DNA of 32,000 nt from Candidatus Harpocratesius repetitus (GTDB lineage Archaea; Asgardarchaeota; Lokiarchaeia; Sigyniarchaeales; Promethearchaeaceae). The stretch spans positions 4,194,758-4,226,757 of the forward strand of contig JAIZWK010000001.1 of assembly GCA_021498095.1 (NCBI GenBank). The letters are read 5' to 3'. The number at the start of each line of letters is the position of its first letter. Position 1 is the stretch's first letter. The position numbers and the translations under genes are program-made. The notes beneath the pieces were generated by a model that saw nothing but the letters and a program-made list of their open reading frames with translations, did not search any database and had not been told where the DNA came from. Below are positions 26,027-31,960 of this stretch, piece after piece.

Positions 26027-26746
26027 ATGTCGAATGTCAATAATCTGATCGAATTTCCACATCCTTTAATAAAACGAAATTATCATCTAATTCGCCACTA
26101 TTTATTGTTTCTAGTTGATATTGGATTAGATTATCTAAAAAGAGAATATCTTCGCCATAATTCAGAAACTTCTTTTCAAGAATTTACCGCAAATAATTAT
26201 TATGATTATATTCTAAAGGATTATCTTCGTCGCAAATTGAAAGGGATATTAAAAGTCATTTTAAAAGCATCTGTAGAAGCAACTAAATATTTTAAAGATG
26301 AAAAAATCGATGCATCTGAATTAGATAGAATTGTGAAAAAATATTATCCCGAATATGCAGAAAATGATATGTCTCTTCTTCATAGCTCACCTAGCCATCC
26401 TAATCGAAGTGAATTGGAAACGATCAGTCGACTTACTTTTAGAGTGGCAATCATTCAAACAACACGAATTATTCAATGCAAGTATGAAAATATTAGTTAT
26501 TATTCTGATCTCATCCGAACGGTTTATCCAGACAAAATACAATGCCAAATTTCTTTACATGCTATATTAACTATGATAGATCAAATGATTGACTGTTTTG
26601 AAAGATCTTTAGATCTGATCTCCATTCCTTTTTACAAACCGACATGGAACTTGCGTGATTTTGCATATATTCGCAAAATATATGAATTTGCAATTACAGA
26701 AACTAATCATCAAATTGATTTAATTTATCAGGGGGAAAAAATATGA
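26027..26746 (+). CDS. Hypothetical, predicted all-alpha protein, translationally coupled to the TrmB gene
   Basis: 239-aa ORF with a GGGGAG SD-like element upstream and an ATGA overlap with the next gene; no motif recognised. Confidence 0.75.
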   Translation: MSNVNNLIEFPHPLIKRNYHLIRHYLLFLVDIGLDYLKREYLRHNSETSFQEFTANNYYDYILKDYLRRKLKGILKVILKASVEATKYFKDEKIDASELDRIVKKYYPEYAENDMSLLHSSPSHPNRSELETISRLTFRVAIIQTTRIIQCKYENISYYSDLIRTVYPDKIQCQISLHAILTMIDQMIDCFERSLDLISIPFYKPTWNLRDFAYIRKIYEFAITETNHQIDLIYQGEKI

Positions 26747-27624
26747 AAAAGTACAAAATGCCCAAGTTAAAACCGGAAATTCGCAGTGCCATGAAAGCGA
26801 TTGGATTTACGGACTATTTTATTAATCTTTTTATTACACTTCTGAATTCAGGAGAAATGAACGCTCACGAATTAAGTGAAATTACACATGTCCCCTATTC
26901 ACGTATCTATGAAATTCTCAATGAAATGGTAGCCAAAAAAATCATTACCAAAATAGATGGTCGACCAAGTACATTTATAGCCAATGATCCTACTGATGTA
27001 TTTATGTACATGAAACGCCAACAAGAGCAGATTTTTAGCGAAAATATTAATACAACACTCCCTATTCTTAAACAATTATTTGGTGAAAAACGACCAACAA
27101 AACAGGTTCAATTTACACTGCTCGAAGGAGATAAAGCCAGTCGAGATCATCTCCGAAATCTTATTAATGCAACGTCTCATAAATTACAAGCAGTAATTAG
27201 AAATGTAGCGGAAGTTTACCCCTTAATCAGACATAATTTAGATTTTCTTCGTACGAAAGGTGTAGAAGTTCAAATAATTATTGAAACAGAATTTGTAAAT
27301 GAAGAATTCATTCCAATCTTGGAAAACCATTGTGATATTAAATATGTAGATCACATTTTTCAAACTCTTTTTATTTCTGATGATAATGTTGCATTTCAAT
27401 CTGCCAAAGGATATTTTGATATTGCAAACCCAAAAATAAAAGGATATTCTATATTCAGTTCCACTGATACGAAGTATATTATGTACACCCAACAAATCTT
27501 TGAAAATATTTGGAAAATTGGAATTCAAAAAGAACAAATTCAACAAAAAAGTAAATCATCGAGTAATTCACAGAAAAAGGCAACTAGAACAAGTAAAAAG
27601 GCAGTAAAATCTGAAAATAAGTAA
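26743..27624 (+). CDS. TrmB-family transcriptional regulator
   Basis: N-terminal wHTH (IGFTDY…MNAHELSEITHVPYSRIYEILNEMVAKKII…GRPSTFIANDP), a PLD-like effector domain (LFISDDNVAF), and a basic disordered tail. Confidence 0.87.
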   Translation: MKKYKMPKLKPEIRSAMKAIGFTDYFINLFITLLNSGEMNAHELSEITHVPYSRIYEILNEMVAKKIITKIDGRPSTFIANDPTDVFMYMKRQQEQIFSENINTTLPILKQLFGEKRPTKQVQFTLLEGDKASRDHLRNLINATSHKLQAVIRNVAEVYPLIRHNLDFLRTKGVEVQIIIETEFVNEEFIPILENHCDIKYVDHIFQTLFISDDNVAFQSAKGYFDIANPKIKGYSIFSSTDTKYIMYTQQIFENIWKIGIQKEQIQQKSKSSSNSQKKATRTSKKAVKSENK

Positions 27625-27656: not shown

Positions 27657-28262
27657 TTACAATAATTTTATATTCCGTTTTATATATGGAGGCTTAGAAA
27701 GAAGCAGTTTTACTAGCTCTTTAAAAATTAAGCTTGTATTATAACCTGTTTTTGAAGATGTCTCAAAAGCACTACTTGCACCTAGTTTTTTTCGGATGTC
27801 CTCAACGATAGTAGGATCAATTTTTTTGTTTTCATTAATTATATCATATTTTGCACCTACTAAAATAGAAGGAATATTATCTGAATTAGCTCGTAATAAG
27901 GGCAACCATTTCTCTTCTAAACGAATTAAAGAATGGAAAGCAGTCATATCATAAACCCATATTACACCATTAGCCCCAGAGATAAATTGTGGAAGAAGTG
28001 GGCGAAAACGTTCTTGGCCACCAAAATCCCAAATTGAGAGCCCAATTCGAATTTTTTCACCGTTTTCTTCTGCAAGGATGGAATAACTATTAAAACTTAA
28101 TCCGATAGTAAGTTTTGTGTCTAGAAACTCCGAATAACAAAATCGATTAGTGATGCACGTTTTGCCCACACCACCTTCACCCAAAAGAATAATTTTGAAT
28201 TGGTAACGGATATTCTCATTCAAGTTTTCCATCATTGCTTTATATTTCACCATATAATTCAC
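27657..28262 (-). CDS. Rab/Ras-like small GTPase (eukaryotic signature protein)
   Basis: G1 GEGGVGKT, G2 TIG, G3 WDFGGQERF, G4 GAKYD, G5 ETSSK; no C-terminal Cys prenylation motif. Confidence 0.92.
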   Translation of the reverse strand: MNYMVKYKAMMENLNENIRYQFKIILLGEGGVGKTCITNRFCYSEFLDTKLTIGLSFNSYSILAEENGEKIRIGLSIWDFGGQERFRPLLPQFISGANGVIWVYDMTAFHSLIRLEEKWLPLLRANSDNIPSILVGAKYDIINENKKIDPTIVEDIRKKLGASSAFETSSKTGYNTSLIFKELVKLLLSKPPYIKRNIKLL

Positions 28263-28376
28263 AATTTGGTGTTTACTATAATAAAGAAATATAATTTTGT
28301 AAATATTAATTGATTAAAAAAAGCAGATCCTTTCCTATTAATTTTTACAATACTATTCCTTTATACATGGATGCTC

Positions 28377-29603
28377 TTAAATTTTAGAATAAATTTCGAT
28401 AATATCAAATTCATTTAAAACAAAATTCATACCTGCTCGAATACGCGTTTCTTGTCCATCCGAGCGAGTTCGGTAAATATAAGCAAATTTAAATCCATTA
28501 TATAGATCTTTATGAATTTTTAGCGCAACTTCTCCAACTGTGCTTGATTTTGGAACAATTAAAGGTTTATCTGCAATCCCCTTCTTAGATTTTGTGTATA
28601 TTCGAATTAATTTCAATTTTCGAAGAATATCTTCTTCAAAAGAGTTTAATCCTTTTTTCACAATTTCATCACGAGATTTATCATAAATAAAAGCAATTGG
28701 ATAAATAGAATATTCATATTTTGTTCCTTTTCCATAATTAATTTGCAATTTATTAAAATTCTCTTTAGTATTTGGTAGATCTGCTTTACTAGCAATTATT
28801 ATAGCGGGTTTATATTTTGAAGAGCGATTAAAAGCCATTTCTATTTCATCAATAGAGAGTTCTTGATAAATTTTTACAGTTGCATGGCTGATTCCTGACG
28901 CTTGAACCATTTCTTTAATAAAAGGAATATTATTTTCGTTCTTCTTTGCATCTTTTGTCATTAAAAAGATTTGTATTCCTCCAGCACCAGTTTTTTCTAT
29001 TGATACTTTTGGAGCTTCTCGATTTAAATAAAGATGGTGTTGATGAAGGTGCTTTATTATATTTTCCATTTGTTTAAGAGGATCCCGAGATAAATCAATC
29101 ATTAAAGCAATAATATCAGTTACTTTCAAGCCAGCAATCACACGAGATAAATACTGAGATTCATGTAAAGCAGGTTCTTCGACAATTTGAAATTTAATTT
29201 TTTTCCATTCGTAAATTCCAACAACAGGTTCGGCAGTAAATACACCTGGAACAAGGTGAGACACTCCAGTCATATTTTTTAAAAAAGTGGATTTTCCTGC
29301 ACCCATATCTTGATCAAAGTAATCACTAACCAACATAATTTGAACAGACTGTGGTTCTTTTTTGATTACAAATGGATCTTCAACAGCTGCTGCTAAAGCC
29401 TTTCGTCGCCGTATTTTATCTTCTCGTTCAGCTTTCAATTTTGAAAGTCGTGTTTTATTCAATGCCACGATACGTTCAGTAGCTTTATGCTTTGGAACAA
29501 GGGAAAGAAACCGTTCTAATCGCTCGATCTTATCATCAAGGGTCTTTGCATCTAAAAATTCACTGTAAGCCAGCTTTGCTTCCGCAGTTAAATTGGAACT
29601 CAC
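28377..29603 (-). CDS. OBG/DRG-family GTPase-like protein with C-terminal TGS domain and degenerate G motifs
   Basis: Archaeal DRG-type N-terminus (MSSNL…AKTLDDKIERLE…VPKHKATE), GAGKST, IDLSRDP, VSIEKTGAGGI, and TGS (IRIYTK…STVGEVALKIHKD…DIIEI). GTG start. Confidence 0.85.
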   Translation of the reverse strand: MSSNLTAEAKLAYSEFLDAKTLDDKIERLERFLSLVPKHKATERIVALNKTRLSKLKAEREDKIRRRKALAAAVEDPFVIKKEPQSVQIMLVSDYFDQDMGAGKSTFLKNMTGVSHLVPGVFTAEPVVGIYEWKKIKFQIVEEPALHESQYLSRVIAGLKVTDIIALMIDLSRDPLKQMENIIKHLHQHHLYLNREAPKVSIEKTGAGGIQIFLMTKDAKKNENNIPFIKEMVQASGISHATVKIYQELSIDEIEMAFNRSSKYKPAIIIASKADLPNTKENFNKLQINYGKGTKYEYSIYPIAFIYDKSRDEIVKKGLNSFEEDILRKLKLIRIYTKSKKGIADKPLIVPKSSTVGEVALKIHKDLYNGFKFAYIYRTRSDGQETRIRAGMNFVLNEFDIIEIYSKI

Positions 29604-29626
29604 TGGGAGCGCCCCCCTTTCTTTAA

Positions 29627-30121
29627 TTAAAATAATGATTTGAAGCGGTCTTCGCTTTTCAAAATTAGATCCCCAAAAATTTTATCCAAACGTTTATCGA
29701 ATTTCTTAAATTTTTTTACTTTTTTATGGGTAATATCATAAATACTAAAACGGTTTGAAAATTGAAACAGTGCTTCTCTCATGGTTTTTAAAACAGTCTT
29801 ATCATCACTGTTTTGATCAACAATACAATACATTAAAAGAGGTTCTAAAGAAGAATGATCCACATCAGAATTAGACTTTGAATTAGCTTCAGAATCCGCA
29901 GAATCCGCAGAATCAGCAATATTATGAGTTATAACTGTAATAGTATATTTACCAAGTGAAAAACTTTGAATTTCTTCGCCAAATGCTTCAGTAACTACTC
30001 CAGAAATAGTTTGTAAAAGAGAATTTCGAATATTTTTATCCAAGACATTTGATGTGGAATAAAATTGTTTTTCGAGTAAGGGTTCACCTTGGTAAGAAAT
30101 TGCCAATTCTAATATTGCCAT
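29627..30121 (-). CDS. Longin-like domain protein (putative Asgard eukaryotic signature protein)
   Basis: Secondary-structure pattern beta-beta-alpha-beta-beta-beta-alpha-alpha (LELAISYQGEPLLEK; LLQTISGVVTEAFGEEIQSFSLGKYTI; LLMYCIVD; MREALFQF; FKKFDKRLDKIF), typical of longin folds. Recognised by pattern only. Confidence 0.65.
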   Translation of the reverse strand: MAILELAISYQGEPLLEKQFYSTSNVLDKNIRNSLLQTISGVVTEAFGEEIQSFSLGKYTITVITHNIADSADSADSEANSKSNSDVDHSSLEPLLMYCIVDQNSDDKTVLKTMREALFQFSNRFSIYDITHKKVKKFKKFDKRLDKIFGDLILKSEDRFKSLF

Positions 30122-30240: not shown

Positions 30241-30987
30241 TTAATATGTTAATGATGAAATATTGCGATATGAAAGTTGAATTTGTAAAGCAGCATTTTG
30301 AAGAACAGGGGACATATGTCCAGAGCAAAGGATTTCTGCTTGAAGATCTGAAAGTCTTTTTATAGATAATTTCAATTTTTGGAGGTCTCCACCAGGAAAA
30401 TCGTATCGACCAAAACTTCCTTGAGGAAAAACAACATCACCAGGGAATAGAATTTTATGTGATTTATCAAATAACGTAATTGACCCTTTACTATGTCCTG
30501 GTGTTTCTAACACATCGAGAGTAAATGATCCGAAATTTATTGTTTCTCCTTCATGAACTTCAATTAAATTAGTTAGAGGTTTTATTTTAACTCCAAAGAC
30601 ATCAGCACTTATTCCCAATTCGCGAGGACATATCCTTTGTTCATTTCCTTGTTTAAGAATTTGATTGGTAAAAGGAGCAACATAAATATTTAGCGAAGAT
30701 ATATCATTTTCTTCAAGAATAGAATAAAGCCCTAAAATATGATCTAAATGTTCATGAGTGATGATTATTGAAGCGAGATTCTCCATATTCAATCCAATTT
30801 CATGTATGCTCTTTTTAAACCCACTAAGTGATTTCCCATTACCTGTATCAATCAAACAAAATTTTCCAGAAGATTCATCTACCAGAACGTACATATTACA
30901 ATCGAGCATTGGAAATTCAGCAAAATAATATAGATTTGGTACAATTTTACGAACTATTTTTTTCGTGGGATTTCGGTTAAAGAACAT
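30241..30987 (-). CDS. MBL-fold metallo-hydrolase (glyoxalase II-like)
   Basis: LIDTGNG, ITHEHLDHILG, ETPGHSKGS, FPGDVVF, SFGRYDFPGG, SGH. Confidence 0.9.
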   Translation of the reverse strand: MFFNRNPTKKIVRKIVPNLYYFAEFPMLDCNMYVLVDESSGKFCLIDTGNGKSLSGFKKSIHEIGLNMENLASIIITHEHLDHILGLYSILEENDISSLNIYVAPFTNQILKQGNEQRICPRELGISADVFGVKIKPLTNLIEVHEGETINFGSFTLDVLETPGHSKGSITLFDKSHKILFPGDVVFPQGSFGRYDFPGGDLQKLKLSIKRLSDLQAEILCSGHMSPVLQNAALQIQLSYRNISSLTY

Positions 30988-31081: not shown

Positions 31082-31960
31082 TTAATTAAAATATTCACGT
31101 TTCATTACCTTTTGAGAAAATTTTGCCATAGTTAAGGGTTTTTGAAGAGAATTTGCAAAATTAATACATTTTTTCAAGGTTTCTTCGAATTGATATCCCA
31201 CATATGAAGATCGGTGAGCATCAGATCCAAAAACAAGTGGAATTTCTCGTTCAATACATGCTTTAATCATTTCATCATGGGGATACTGCTCCTTAACTGG
31301 TCGATATAATCCAGAATGATTTATTTCTACAGCCATCTCACCAGTTCTTTTCACTTCATCTAAGAATTTCATTTTAAGATCCCAAATTTCGTCCGATCTA
31401 CCAAAATATGTTCCGTATTTTTTAGGAAGATCGCAGTGACCAACAATTTGAAATACACCAGTTTTAACCATTTTAATCAAATTCTTATAATACTCCGAAA
31501 AAATCGTTTCTTCTCCAAATTTTTGAAATTTTTCCATAATATCAGGAGAATCAACTGGAAAAGGAATTTCATCATCAATTTTTATTATATGAATAGATCC
31601 GATGAGATAATCAAGTTTAGACTCATATTTTTTTAGTTCAGAGTATAATTGTGAAAGAACGTGCGGATCAGGATAGTAATCCACTTCAGAAGCGATTTTA
31701 ATTTGAATTTTATCAGAATATTTGGATTGAAGAATTCTACATTCTTCAAGATACTCAGCAAATTGATCTCTTGGCATTGCAAACTGTTCTGCATTTGCTT
31801 CTTTTGGTAAAAAAAACATCGGAAAATGATCTGACAACCCTATTTCTTGCAATCCTATTTTTATGGCTTGTTGAACATATTCTTGCAATTTTCCAACTGC
31901 ATGTCCACAACGTTTTGAATGAATATGATAATCCCAGAGATCTTGAATAGAAGCACACAC
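31082..31960 (-). CDS. hisJ: Histidinol-phosphatase, HisJ/PHP family
   Basis: DYHIHS, GLSDHFP, ASEVDY, IGSIH, GHCDLPKKYG, EINHSG, FGSDAH. Confidence 0.87.
   Translation of the reverse strand: MCASIQDLWDYHIHSKRCGHAVGKLQEYVQQAIKIGLQEIGLSDHFPMFFLPKEANAEQFAMPRDQFAEYLEECRILQSKYSDKIQIKIASEVDYYPDPHVLSQLYSELKKYESKLDYLIGSIHIIKIDDEIPFPVDSPDIMEKFQKFGEETIFSEYYKNLIKMVKTGVFQIVGHCDLPKKYGTYFGRSDEIWDLKMKFLDEVKRTGEMAVEINHSGLYRPVKEQYPHDEMIKACIEREIPLVFGSDAHRSSYVGYQFEETLKKCINFANSLQKPLTMAKFSQKVMKREYFN

Follow-up and report, generated by a model that had tools for sequence, protein, structure and literature searches.

Which GTPase, if any, is served by the longin-fold protein encoded in a 32,000-nucleotide stretch of the genome of the lokiarchaeon Candidatus Harpocratesius repetitus (GenBank assembly GCA_021498095.1, contig JAIZWK010000001.1, positions 4,194,758 to 4,226,757; hereafter the window)? 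In Asgard archaea, longin and roadblock domains rank as eukaryotic signature proteins and are presumed to work for the small GTPases of membrane traffic; we know of no Asgard longin protein with an assigned client. The host genome is closed, measures 4.36 Mb and has a GC content of approximately 31%. An initial annotation of the window had proposed that three consecutive genes, encoding a longin protein, a degenerate DRG-like GTPase and a Rab-like GTPase, form a proto-eukaryotic module that links translation to membrane signalling. The list of open reading frames (ORFs) bears out the three minus-strand genes, with gaps of 23 and 114 bp, as well as the co-oriented run described for this region, in which the three are preceded, on the same strand, by genes for a metallo-beta-lactamase (MBL) fold hydrolase and a HisJ-family PHP phosphatase. 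Our analysis points to a smaller unit: the genes for the longin-fold protein (164 aa; positions 29627..30121, minus strand) and for a DRG-family GTPase (408 aa, GTG start; positions 28377..29603, minus strand) constitute a conserved pair, probably an operon, next to which the Rab-like gene is found in a single family.

Neither the 164-aa protein, encoded by the first gene of the pair, nor any of 21 aligned homologs matches a Pfam or NCBIfam family, in Pfam even at E-values up to 1, and 0 of these 22 family members match the curated longin families (Pfam Longin, Sedlin_N, Sybindin, Clat_adaptor_s and SRX) at E-values up to 1. The protein was assigned from its ORF and a structural model. The longin fold is recognized by a beta-beta-alpha-beta-beta-beta-alpha(-alpha) order of elements, in which a sheet of five strands is covered by a single helix on one side and by the C-terminal helices on the other. 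The AlphaFold2 (AF2) model, built from 22 homologs with a predicted local distance difference test (pLDDT) of 75 and a predicted template modelling score (pTM) of 0.70, displays this topology (bb-a-bbb-a-a), with DSSP assigning strands to residues 3-10 and 13-19, a helix to 29-45, strands to 52-56, 59-68 and 93-102 and a helix to 107-124, followed by short C-terminal helices. Structural comparisons of the model with VIA-align recovered synbindin (2zmv; Z 15.1, 124 aligned residues, root-mean-square deviation 2.6), the longin domain of VAMP7 (Z 14.0), Sec22 (Z 13.4), the N-domains of AP-3 sigma/mu and a TRAPP core subunit (Z ~12-12.5), and Mon1 and Ccz1 (Z ~9.4); the AP sigma/mu N-domains and SRX span a range of Z ~9-12, with SRX at ~11, and the roadblock proteins score below the longin domains (Z 8-9). 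The best Foldseek matches are AP sigma subunits (2e-4), including a chain from the AAGAB complex, and a search of the ESM Atlas recovered unnamed Promethearchaeota clusters ahead of AP sigma subunits and longin SNAREs. Several of these fold matches belong to complexes with a GTPase or pseudo-GTPase, namely SRX/SR-beta, Mon1-Ccz1/Ypt7 and AP sigma3/AAGAB. The mean column identity of the family alignment is 65%, and a Ser/Asp-rich low-complexity loop (residues ~73-90), which the model renders with low confidence, is specific to the window's genus. As modelled, the 164-aa protein is a longin-fold protein, the assignment being made at the level of the fold and not to a named longin family; the predicted topology together with the matches to synbindin and VAMP7 upholds the longin call of the initial annotation.

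The second gene of the pair was identified by Pfam, phmmer, a structural model and a phylogenetic tree as coding for a multidomain GTPase of the DRG family. The Pfam matches of the 408-aa protein are weak (MMR_HSR1_Xtn 4.5e-8, TGS 2e-6, MMR_HSR1 9e-5); phmmer aligned it over its full length with yeast Rbg2 (1e-15) and Rbg1 (3e-13), and Foldseek searches with its AF2 model (pLDDT 86) recovered Rbg1 (2e-23), Rbg2 (3.5e-17) and YchF (2e-10). It displays the DRG architecture of N-terminal helices, a G domain with an S5D2L-type (MMR_HSR1_Xtn) insertion and a C-terminal TGS domain. Its motifs depart from the canonical DRG forms (G1 GxxxxGK[ST], G2 FTT, G3 DxxG, G4 NKxD): where the canonical DRG paralog of the same genome has GFPSVGKS in G1, FTT in G2, DLPG in G3 and NKSD in G4, the 408-aa protein has QDMGAGKST, FTA, EEPA and SKAD, respectively, the first glycine of G1 being gone and the GK[ST] retained. 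Throughout the window's order (Sigyniarchaeales) this first glycine is lost, FTT is replaced by FTA, G3 is devoid of its glycine and G4 takes the form [ST]KxD. At the same time G101, G103, K104, K273 and D275 are invariant in 22 orthologs, and the P-loop T105 is nearly so. Seen against the definition of a pseudo-GTPase (a retained fold that has lost nucleotide binding and/or hydrolysis), the protein preserves its fold and is devoid of the switch-I threonine and the G3 glycine, but has kept the P-loop and guanine-specificity residues. The term degenerate, used earlier for this DRG-like protein, is appropriate in that altered G1-G4 motifs are set in a DRG architecture with the P-loop lysine and the lysine and aspartate of G4 retained. 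Because the P-loop and G4 residues are invariant or nearly so, we infer that nucleotide binding is retained in the 408-aa GTPase, with an altered switch chemistry. Separately, we observed that two DRG-like genes of genus g7 have a CTG codon (L005:1501, L007:2159) where the conserved N-terminal sequence xSSNIG... begins, with no ATG, GTG or TTG near it.

In 27/27 loci of the order that include upstream DNA, the DRG-like gene is immediately preceded by a longin gene of the same orientation. Across two families, the best longin-family match adjoins the DRG-like gene in ~58 of the 60 genomes with coordinates for both; in the two non-adjacent cases the genes are on different contigs, one of the DRG-like genes being truncated by the end of its contig. 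Of the 4 genomes searched in family f32, which belongs to the same order, 3 yielded neither gene, and the fourth yielded a weak longin match and only a DRG-like fragment. In 40 loci of other Asgard families, no member of the longin family turned up within 4 kb of the related DRG genes (of clade B, as defined below); the link therefore arose together with the order-specific remodelling of G1 and G2. The spacers between the two genes are mostly 10-100 bp in related loci. In the window the longin stop codon and the GTG start of the DRG-like gene are separated by 23 bp (29604..29626, minus strand), in which inspection of the sequence reveals a G-rich, Shine-Dalgarno-like run, AAAGGGGGG, and in which a hairpin scan, uninformative for an archaeon, detected no terminator-like site. 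The flanks of the pair vary: upstream there is an MBL gene in most loci of the window's family (adjoining the longin gene in L001, L003, L004, L073, L075, L076, L079 and L081) and a FolD gene in the sister family, and the downstream position is occupied by the Rab-like gene, by a second longin paralog or by a helicase-like gene in convergent orientation. With the two genes on one strand, a short spacer with no terminator-like site and an adjacency that is kept while the flanks change, they represent a conserved two-gene unit, probably an operon. Of the linkages initially proposed, that of the longin gene to the DRG-like gene thus holds across the order.

The distances between the proteins offer a further hint. 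Over 24 sister-family loci the pairwise distances of the longin and DRG-like proteins are correlated with r = 0.845; once the upstream FolD is accounted for, the partial correlation is 0.715 (permutation p ~0.0005), and that of longin with FolD given the DRG-like protein is -0.145. This co-variation would fit co-evolution of the two proteins. A prediction of the complex between the DRG-like and longin proteins returned a score of 0.00 in a run without controls, and weighs neither for nor against binding.

To place the GTPase among its relatives we computed a tree of 146 DRG-family proteins, of which 30 came from Asgard loci and 116 represent the matches of a search through 1.84 billion proteins, with the named outgroup sequences taken from cluster look-ups. 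The tree splits into two clades, A and B, with a support of 100 in the Shimodaira-Hasegawa-like approximate likelihood ratio test (SH-aLRT); as it is midpoint-rooted and stems from a quick search, it does not fix the age of this split. Clade A displays canonical motifs and includes mammalian DRG2, proteins of Micrarchaeota and Thermoplasmatota, and the canonical copy of the host genome (G000:C1:2770888-2771895), which is 24% identical to the 408-aa protein. Clade B is typified by an N-terminal extension of ~20 residues and mostly by ExPA at G3 and [NT]KxD at G4, and unites Thermococcus 'GTP-binding protein 2', proteins of Bathyarchaeia and Thermoprotei, all other Asgard 'type B' proteins and the 408-aa protein. 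The proteins of the window's order group together inside clade B with good support (SH-aLRT 99), and a long internal branch leads to those of its own family; within clade B the loss of the first G1 glycine and the change of FTT to FTA are confined to this order. Two origins of the 408-aa protein were considered and dismissed: it is not a decayed canonical DRG, as it belongs to a separate archaea-wide clade and the canonical copy is found elsewhere in the genome, and it is not an Asgard-specific or eukaryote-like invention, as clade B also holds Thermococcus, Bathyarchaeia and Thermoprotei proteins. The proto-eukaryotic framing of the locus is likewise weakened, the GTPase being in the archaea-wide clade B and not in the clade with the one named eukaryotic DRG. 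We also observed that the conserved N-terminal helix region of the host's clade-A DRG (G000:C1:2770738-2771895; L002:1489-2646, plus strand) lies ahead of the first ATG, GTG or TTG; the presence of an ATT in frame at L002:1513, 8 nt past a GGAGGAG run, suggests a non-standard ATT start codon.

Archaea have been described as having a single DRG (bioRxiv 10.64898/2026.05.13.724932), and reviews give them one DRG and no DFRP-like partner (bioRxiv 10.64898/2026.05.13.724932; PMC8629797). The two clades make the single-DRG statement too simple. The canonical clade-A DRG is present in all members of the window's family searched, one match being marginal (1.6e-6, in a 76%-complete genome). In the sister family (f2) it is patchy even within genera, with matches of 1e-147 to 1e-159 in ~29 of 69 genomes, and in many near-complete (98-100%) genomes of this family the canonical-DRG query matches only the longin-linked clade-B gene (1e-23 to 1e-30). 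In those genomes the clade-B gene is likely the working DRG. One locus of another Asgard lineage (L039) carries clade-A and clade-B DRG genes in tandem. The clade-B DRG genes of other Asgard archaea have neighbors of their own: a methyltransferase of ~200 aa and of the HemK/Mtq2 kind, with an NPPY motif, is encoded upstream in 10 of 40 loci (L032, L036, L037, L040, L050, L056, L064, L065, L067 and L068, which include closed 1.4-Mb genomes of family f5), and a TrmY-like RNA methyltransferase (PF04013) in 6 of 40 (L043, L054, L057, L058, L060 and L070). Both are translation-related contexts.

Building on the order of the genes, the folds, the states of the motifs, the placement in clade B, the co-variation and the evidence of purifying selection (the last described below), we hold it to be an evenly balanced proposition that the longin protein and the clade-B DRG-type GTPase share a transcript and act jointly at the ribosome. 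In the mechanism that we envisage, the two proteins would be translated from a common message; the GTPase would still bind guanine nucleotide, having lost the usual switch chemistry, and would contact the ribosome by way of S5D2L and TGS, both of which it has kept; and the longin protein would bind the GTPase as a dedicated partner, stabilizing or regulating it in the manner of a DFRP or of the longin/roadblock platforms. The Rab-like gene would then be a separate transcription unit, a family-level neighbor and not a source of a third subunit.

Several observations weigh against this pairing, and they are shared in part by two other explanations. Binding, co-transcription, nucleotide behaviour and ribosome association are all inferred, and the conservation of gene order within one order could reflect co-expression without contact, with the longin protein working with other partners, such as small GTPases or membrane and adaptor machinery, and merely sharing a promoter with the DRG-like gene. 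The longin gene indeed persists where the DRG-like gene is lost: a congener of the host (L073, G094:C23:1-6117) has lost the DRG-like gene by a clean deletion that leaves the longin and Rab-like genes in place, genus g2 (L072, L074) yielded no DRG-like gene within ~4 kb of the longin gene, G310 (L081) has none downstream of the longin gene, and that of G282 (L079, a fragmented metagenome-assembled genome) is broken into several frames, yet in every such locus of the window's family the longin gene is intact. Because of this persistence the longin protein must have some role without the DRG-like protein, and the DRG-like GTPase, for its part, is dispensable where the canonical DRG exists. Moreover, longin-family paralogs occur elsewhere without a neighboring GTPase gene, several of them unlinked per genome (with 6 matches to the family in the host genome), in G301 the longin and DRG-like genes are ~9 kb apart on opposite strands, and the mirror-tree test described above is weak, with a single control gene and related genomes. 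Nevertheless, mere co-expression appears unlikely to us, given that the adjacency is maintained in ~58 of 60 genomes of two families while both flanks change, that the longin distances track the DRG-like protein and not FolD, and that neither gene was found in 3 of the 4 f32 genomes searched. The same losses, together with the one fragmented copy, could be read as signs of a decaying redundant paralog, the clade-B copy being a relic, its motif changes erosion and its link to the longin gene historical. The motifs are most eroded in the window's family (EEPA, SKAD, QDMGAGKST), all members of that family searched possess the canonical DRG (one of them by a marginal match), and the clade has a long branch in the DRG tree. 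However, the frame of 408 codons is intact, and in comparison with the congener the gene has accumulated 0.18 nonsynonymous substitutions per site (dN) against more than 1, that is, saturated, synonymous substitutions per site (dS), whereas dN is 0.20 for the TrmB-family gene, 0.22 for the Rab-like gene and 0.28 for the MBL gene. With a dN no faster than its neighbors and dS > 1, the substitution pattern marks the DRG-like gene as being under purifying selection, and this together with the intact frame rules out a plain pseudogene. Decay is further opposed by the P-loop lysine and the G4 lysine and aspartate being invariant in 22 orthologs, by the confidence of the AF2 model, and by a 98%-identical protein in another Harpocratesius assembly; we regard it as quite improbable.

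The remaining alternative is the three-part module, in which the longin protein would be an exchange factor or platform for the Rab-like GTPase, the DRG-like protein would tether both to the ribosome, and translation would thereby be coupled to small-GTPase signalling. The third gene (27657..28262, minus strand) codes for a protein of 201 aa that was identified by Pfam, solved relatives and an ortholog alignment: it matches the Pfam families Ras (5e-31) and Roc (2e-26), its best solved relatives are Ypt6, Rab1A, Rab6 (Rab6B) and Rab35 (5e-26 to 1e-24), and its motifs G1 (GEGGVGKT), G3 (WDFGGQE) and G5 (SSK) are intact, with AKYD in G4 (TKxD in orthologs). The Rab-like identity proposed before is thereby upheld, with a Ras-superfamily G domain for which Rabs are the closest solved relatives. 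The protein ends in ...PPYIKRNIKLL, however, and a C-terminal cysteine is present in no ortholog; because this prenylation motif is absent, the protein is, on its sequence, Rab-like and not a Rab. In favor of a module, three genera of one family have the genes in the sequence longin, DRG-like, Rab-like, in L073 the loss of the DRG-like gene leaves the longin and Rab-like genes as direct neighbors separated by 117 bp, a genome-specific longin paralog elsewhere is followed by a Ras-family gene (L099), and longin domains are known platforms of GTPases. Yet the Rab-like gene has its place behind the DRG-like gene only in g1, g3 and g72, all of them genera of family f1 (L001, L003, L075 and L080, the g3 locus L075 being from a closed 6.03-Mb genome). 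In the genus resembling MK-D1 (g4; L004, L076) the Rab-like gene is absent and replaced by an oppositely oriented second longin paralog; all 27 loci of the sister family lack it as well and have a convergent helicase-like gene downstream. Wherever the Rab-like gene adjoins, the MBL and TrmB-family genes are conserved equally well, TrmB standing beside the Rab-like gene in L001, L003, L073, L075 and L080; because these unrelated genes are conserved to the same degree, the Rab-like adjacency is to be read as ordinary synteny at the level of the family, not exceeding the background of gene order. Furthermore, inspection of the sequence revealed a run of seven T residues (T7) 55-61 nt past the DRG-like stop (28316..28322, minus strand), a candidate archaeal oligo-T terminator, and a TATA-box-like element, TTTATTATA (28277..28285, minus strand), 15-25 nt ahead of the GTG and ATG codons at which the Rab-like gene may start, and for which it is a candidate promoter. 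Together these elements suggest termination after the pair and a separate promoter for the Rab-like gene. The longin paralog that precedes a Ras-family gene has no counterpart even in the same genus, and in MK-D1 small GTPase genes generally lie outside roadblock/longin operons (PMC10933270). The claim of a three-gene module is accordingly not supported, given the limited and unexceptional adjacency of the Rab-like gene and the terminator- and promoter-like elements that intervene, and we consider such a module very unlikely.

Some observations on longin paralogs can be recorded here. The second paralog of the MK-D1-like genus (L004:57-548, plus strand; L076:5870-6328, minus strand) is without a Pfam match. 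In the host genome, the longin paralog at G000:C1:2860611-2861129, 33% identical to the 164-aa protein, is followed by the Ras-family gene at 2861331-2861861 (Pfam Ras 1e-47; L099:4012-5262), and a partial copy of this paralog, 89% identical and with an internal stop, is located at G000:C1:3130376-3130702. We had considered this second longin and Ras pair (G000:C1:2860611-2861860) as support for a longin-Rab association and rejected it, as it has no ortholog at E-values up to 1e-20 in 40 other genomes of the order, those of the same genus included.

The genes surrounding these three are as follows. The MBL-fold hydrolase gene (30241..30987, minus strand; Pfam Lactamase_B 1.5e-22) is not part of the pair, and the HisJ-family PHP phosphatase gene (31082..31960, minus strand) was recognized in a family scan. 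On the other side, the gene for a TrmB-family regulator (26743..27624, plus strand; Pfam TrmB 3.6e-14), used above as a synteny control, is convergent with the Rab-like gene. An ORF of 239 aa without a Pfam match (26027-26746, plus strand) overlaps the start of the TrmB-family gene by 4 bp, and the two likely form a two-gene unit convergent with the Rab-like gene. An Rfam scan of the window found no RNA family, and scans for sigma-70 promoters and hairpin terminators gave counts equal to the shuffled expectation, these models being uninformative for an archaeon.

As far as analogy allows, the closest functional counterparts of the pair would be the eukaryotic DRG-DFRP complexes, and the closest by the fold of the partner would be the longin-GTPase complexes and AAGAB/AP sigma. 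In the former (Rbg1-Tma46 and Rbg2-Gir2 of yeast; DRG1-DFRP1 and DRG2-DFRP2 of humans) the GTPase has the same helix-turn-helix (HTH), G domain, S5D2L and TGS parts, and the DFRP partner stabilizes it and boosts its activity on the ribosome (PMC3510508, PMC8629797). Rbg1 and Rbg2 are also the best sequence and fold matches of the 408-aa protein, and a small dedicated partner is common to both systems, as judged here by gene pairing. The putative partner in our case, however, has a longin fold and not a DFRP domain, and the GTPase belongs to the archaeal clade B and is devoid of the G3 glycine and the second threonine of G2. Among the longin/roadblock platforms (SRX/SR-beta, TRAPP Bet5/Trs23-Ypt1, Mon1-Ccz1/Ypt7, MglB/MglA and Ragulator/Rag) the resemblance lies in the longin fold (Z 15.1 to 9) and the genetic tie to a P-loop GTPase, and SRX/SR-beta is, like the pair proposed here, a case linked to translation. 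To our knowledge all clients of such platforms are small GTPases of the Ras superfamily; in the present case, by contrast, the linked GTPase is of the multidomain Obg/DRG class, and the longin protein lacks a Pfam longin match and is known from genes and a model. The complex of the AAGAB pseudoGTPase with AP sigma (PDB 9ddt) likewise joins a longin-fold protein to a GTPase-like domain with altered motifs; AAGAB is a small Ras-like class I pseudoGTPase without catalytic motifs that acts as an assembly chaperone in eukaryotes (PMC12490416), whereas the 408-aa protein keeps the P-loop lysine, the G4 aspartate and the full DRG architecture. Within its own clade, the 408-aa protein shares with the Thermococcus protein ('GTP-binding protein 2' or 'OBG GTPase family GTP-binding protein', ~388 aa) the N-terminal extension, the length and the change of the G3 aspartate to glutamate (EVPGL), but the latter retains a complete G1 (GxxxxGKS), G2 (YAFTT) and the G3 glycine. 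Most other Asgard members of clade B similarly keep G1 and G2 and have no longin neighbor, while the window's order has lost motifs and gained the longin neighbor. The pair is hence a variation on known themes, a GTPase with a longin platform and a DRG with a dedicated partner, and not a new category.

We found no description of a longin and DRG pair in the literature searched (on Asgard longins, GTPases and DRGs, archaeal DRG phylogeny, longin-pseudoGTPase complexes and Thermococcus TGS/DRG paralogs), and a structural survey of Asgard GTPase, roadblock and longin proteins mentions neither TGS nor DRG (PMC10933270). Newly established are the membership of the GTPase in a second DRG clade that spans the archaea, the repeated loss of the DRG-like gene in one family with the longin gene kept, the status of the Rab-like neighbor as synteny at the family level only, and the figures for selection and co-variation. 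The existence of two deep archaeal DRG clades, one of them with an acquired partner gene, bears on the biology of DRGs in general. More tentatively, we propose that in Lokiarchaeia the longin protein may be a dedicated regulator of a ribosome-binding, multidomain GTPase of the Obg/DRG class, either as an analogue of DFRPs or as a platform akin to guanine nucleotide exchange factors or GTPase-activating proteins; this would be the first longin client from outside the Ras superfamily and would extend the partnership of longins and GTPases, in the archaea most closely related to eukaryotes, to translation control. If true, the pair would constitute the working DRG system of those genomes in which no DRG-family gene other than that of clade B was found. 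As the pair is present in both of the Loki-type archaea in culture, its proteins are accessible to testing. A longin gene tied to a DRG-type GTPase throughout an order provides a concrete, testable client for an Asgard longin protein, and one that points to the ribosome rather than to membranes.

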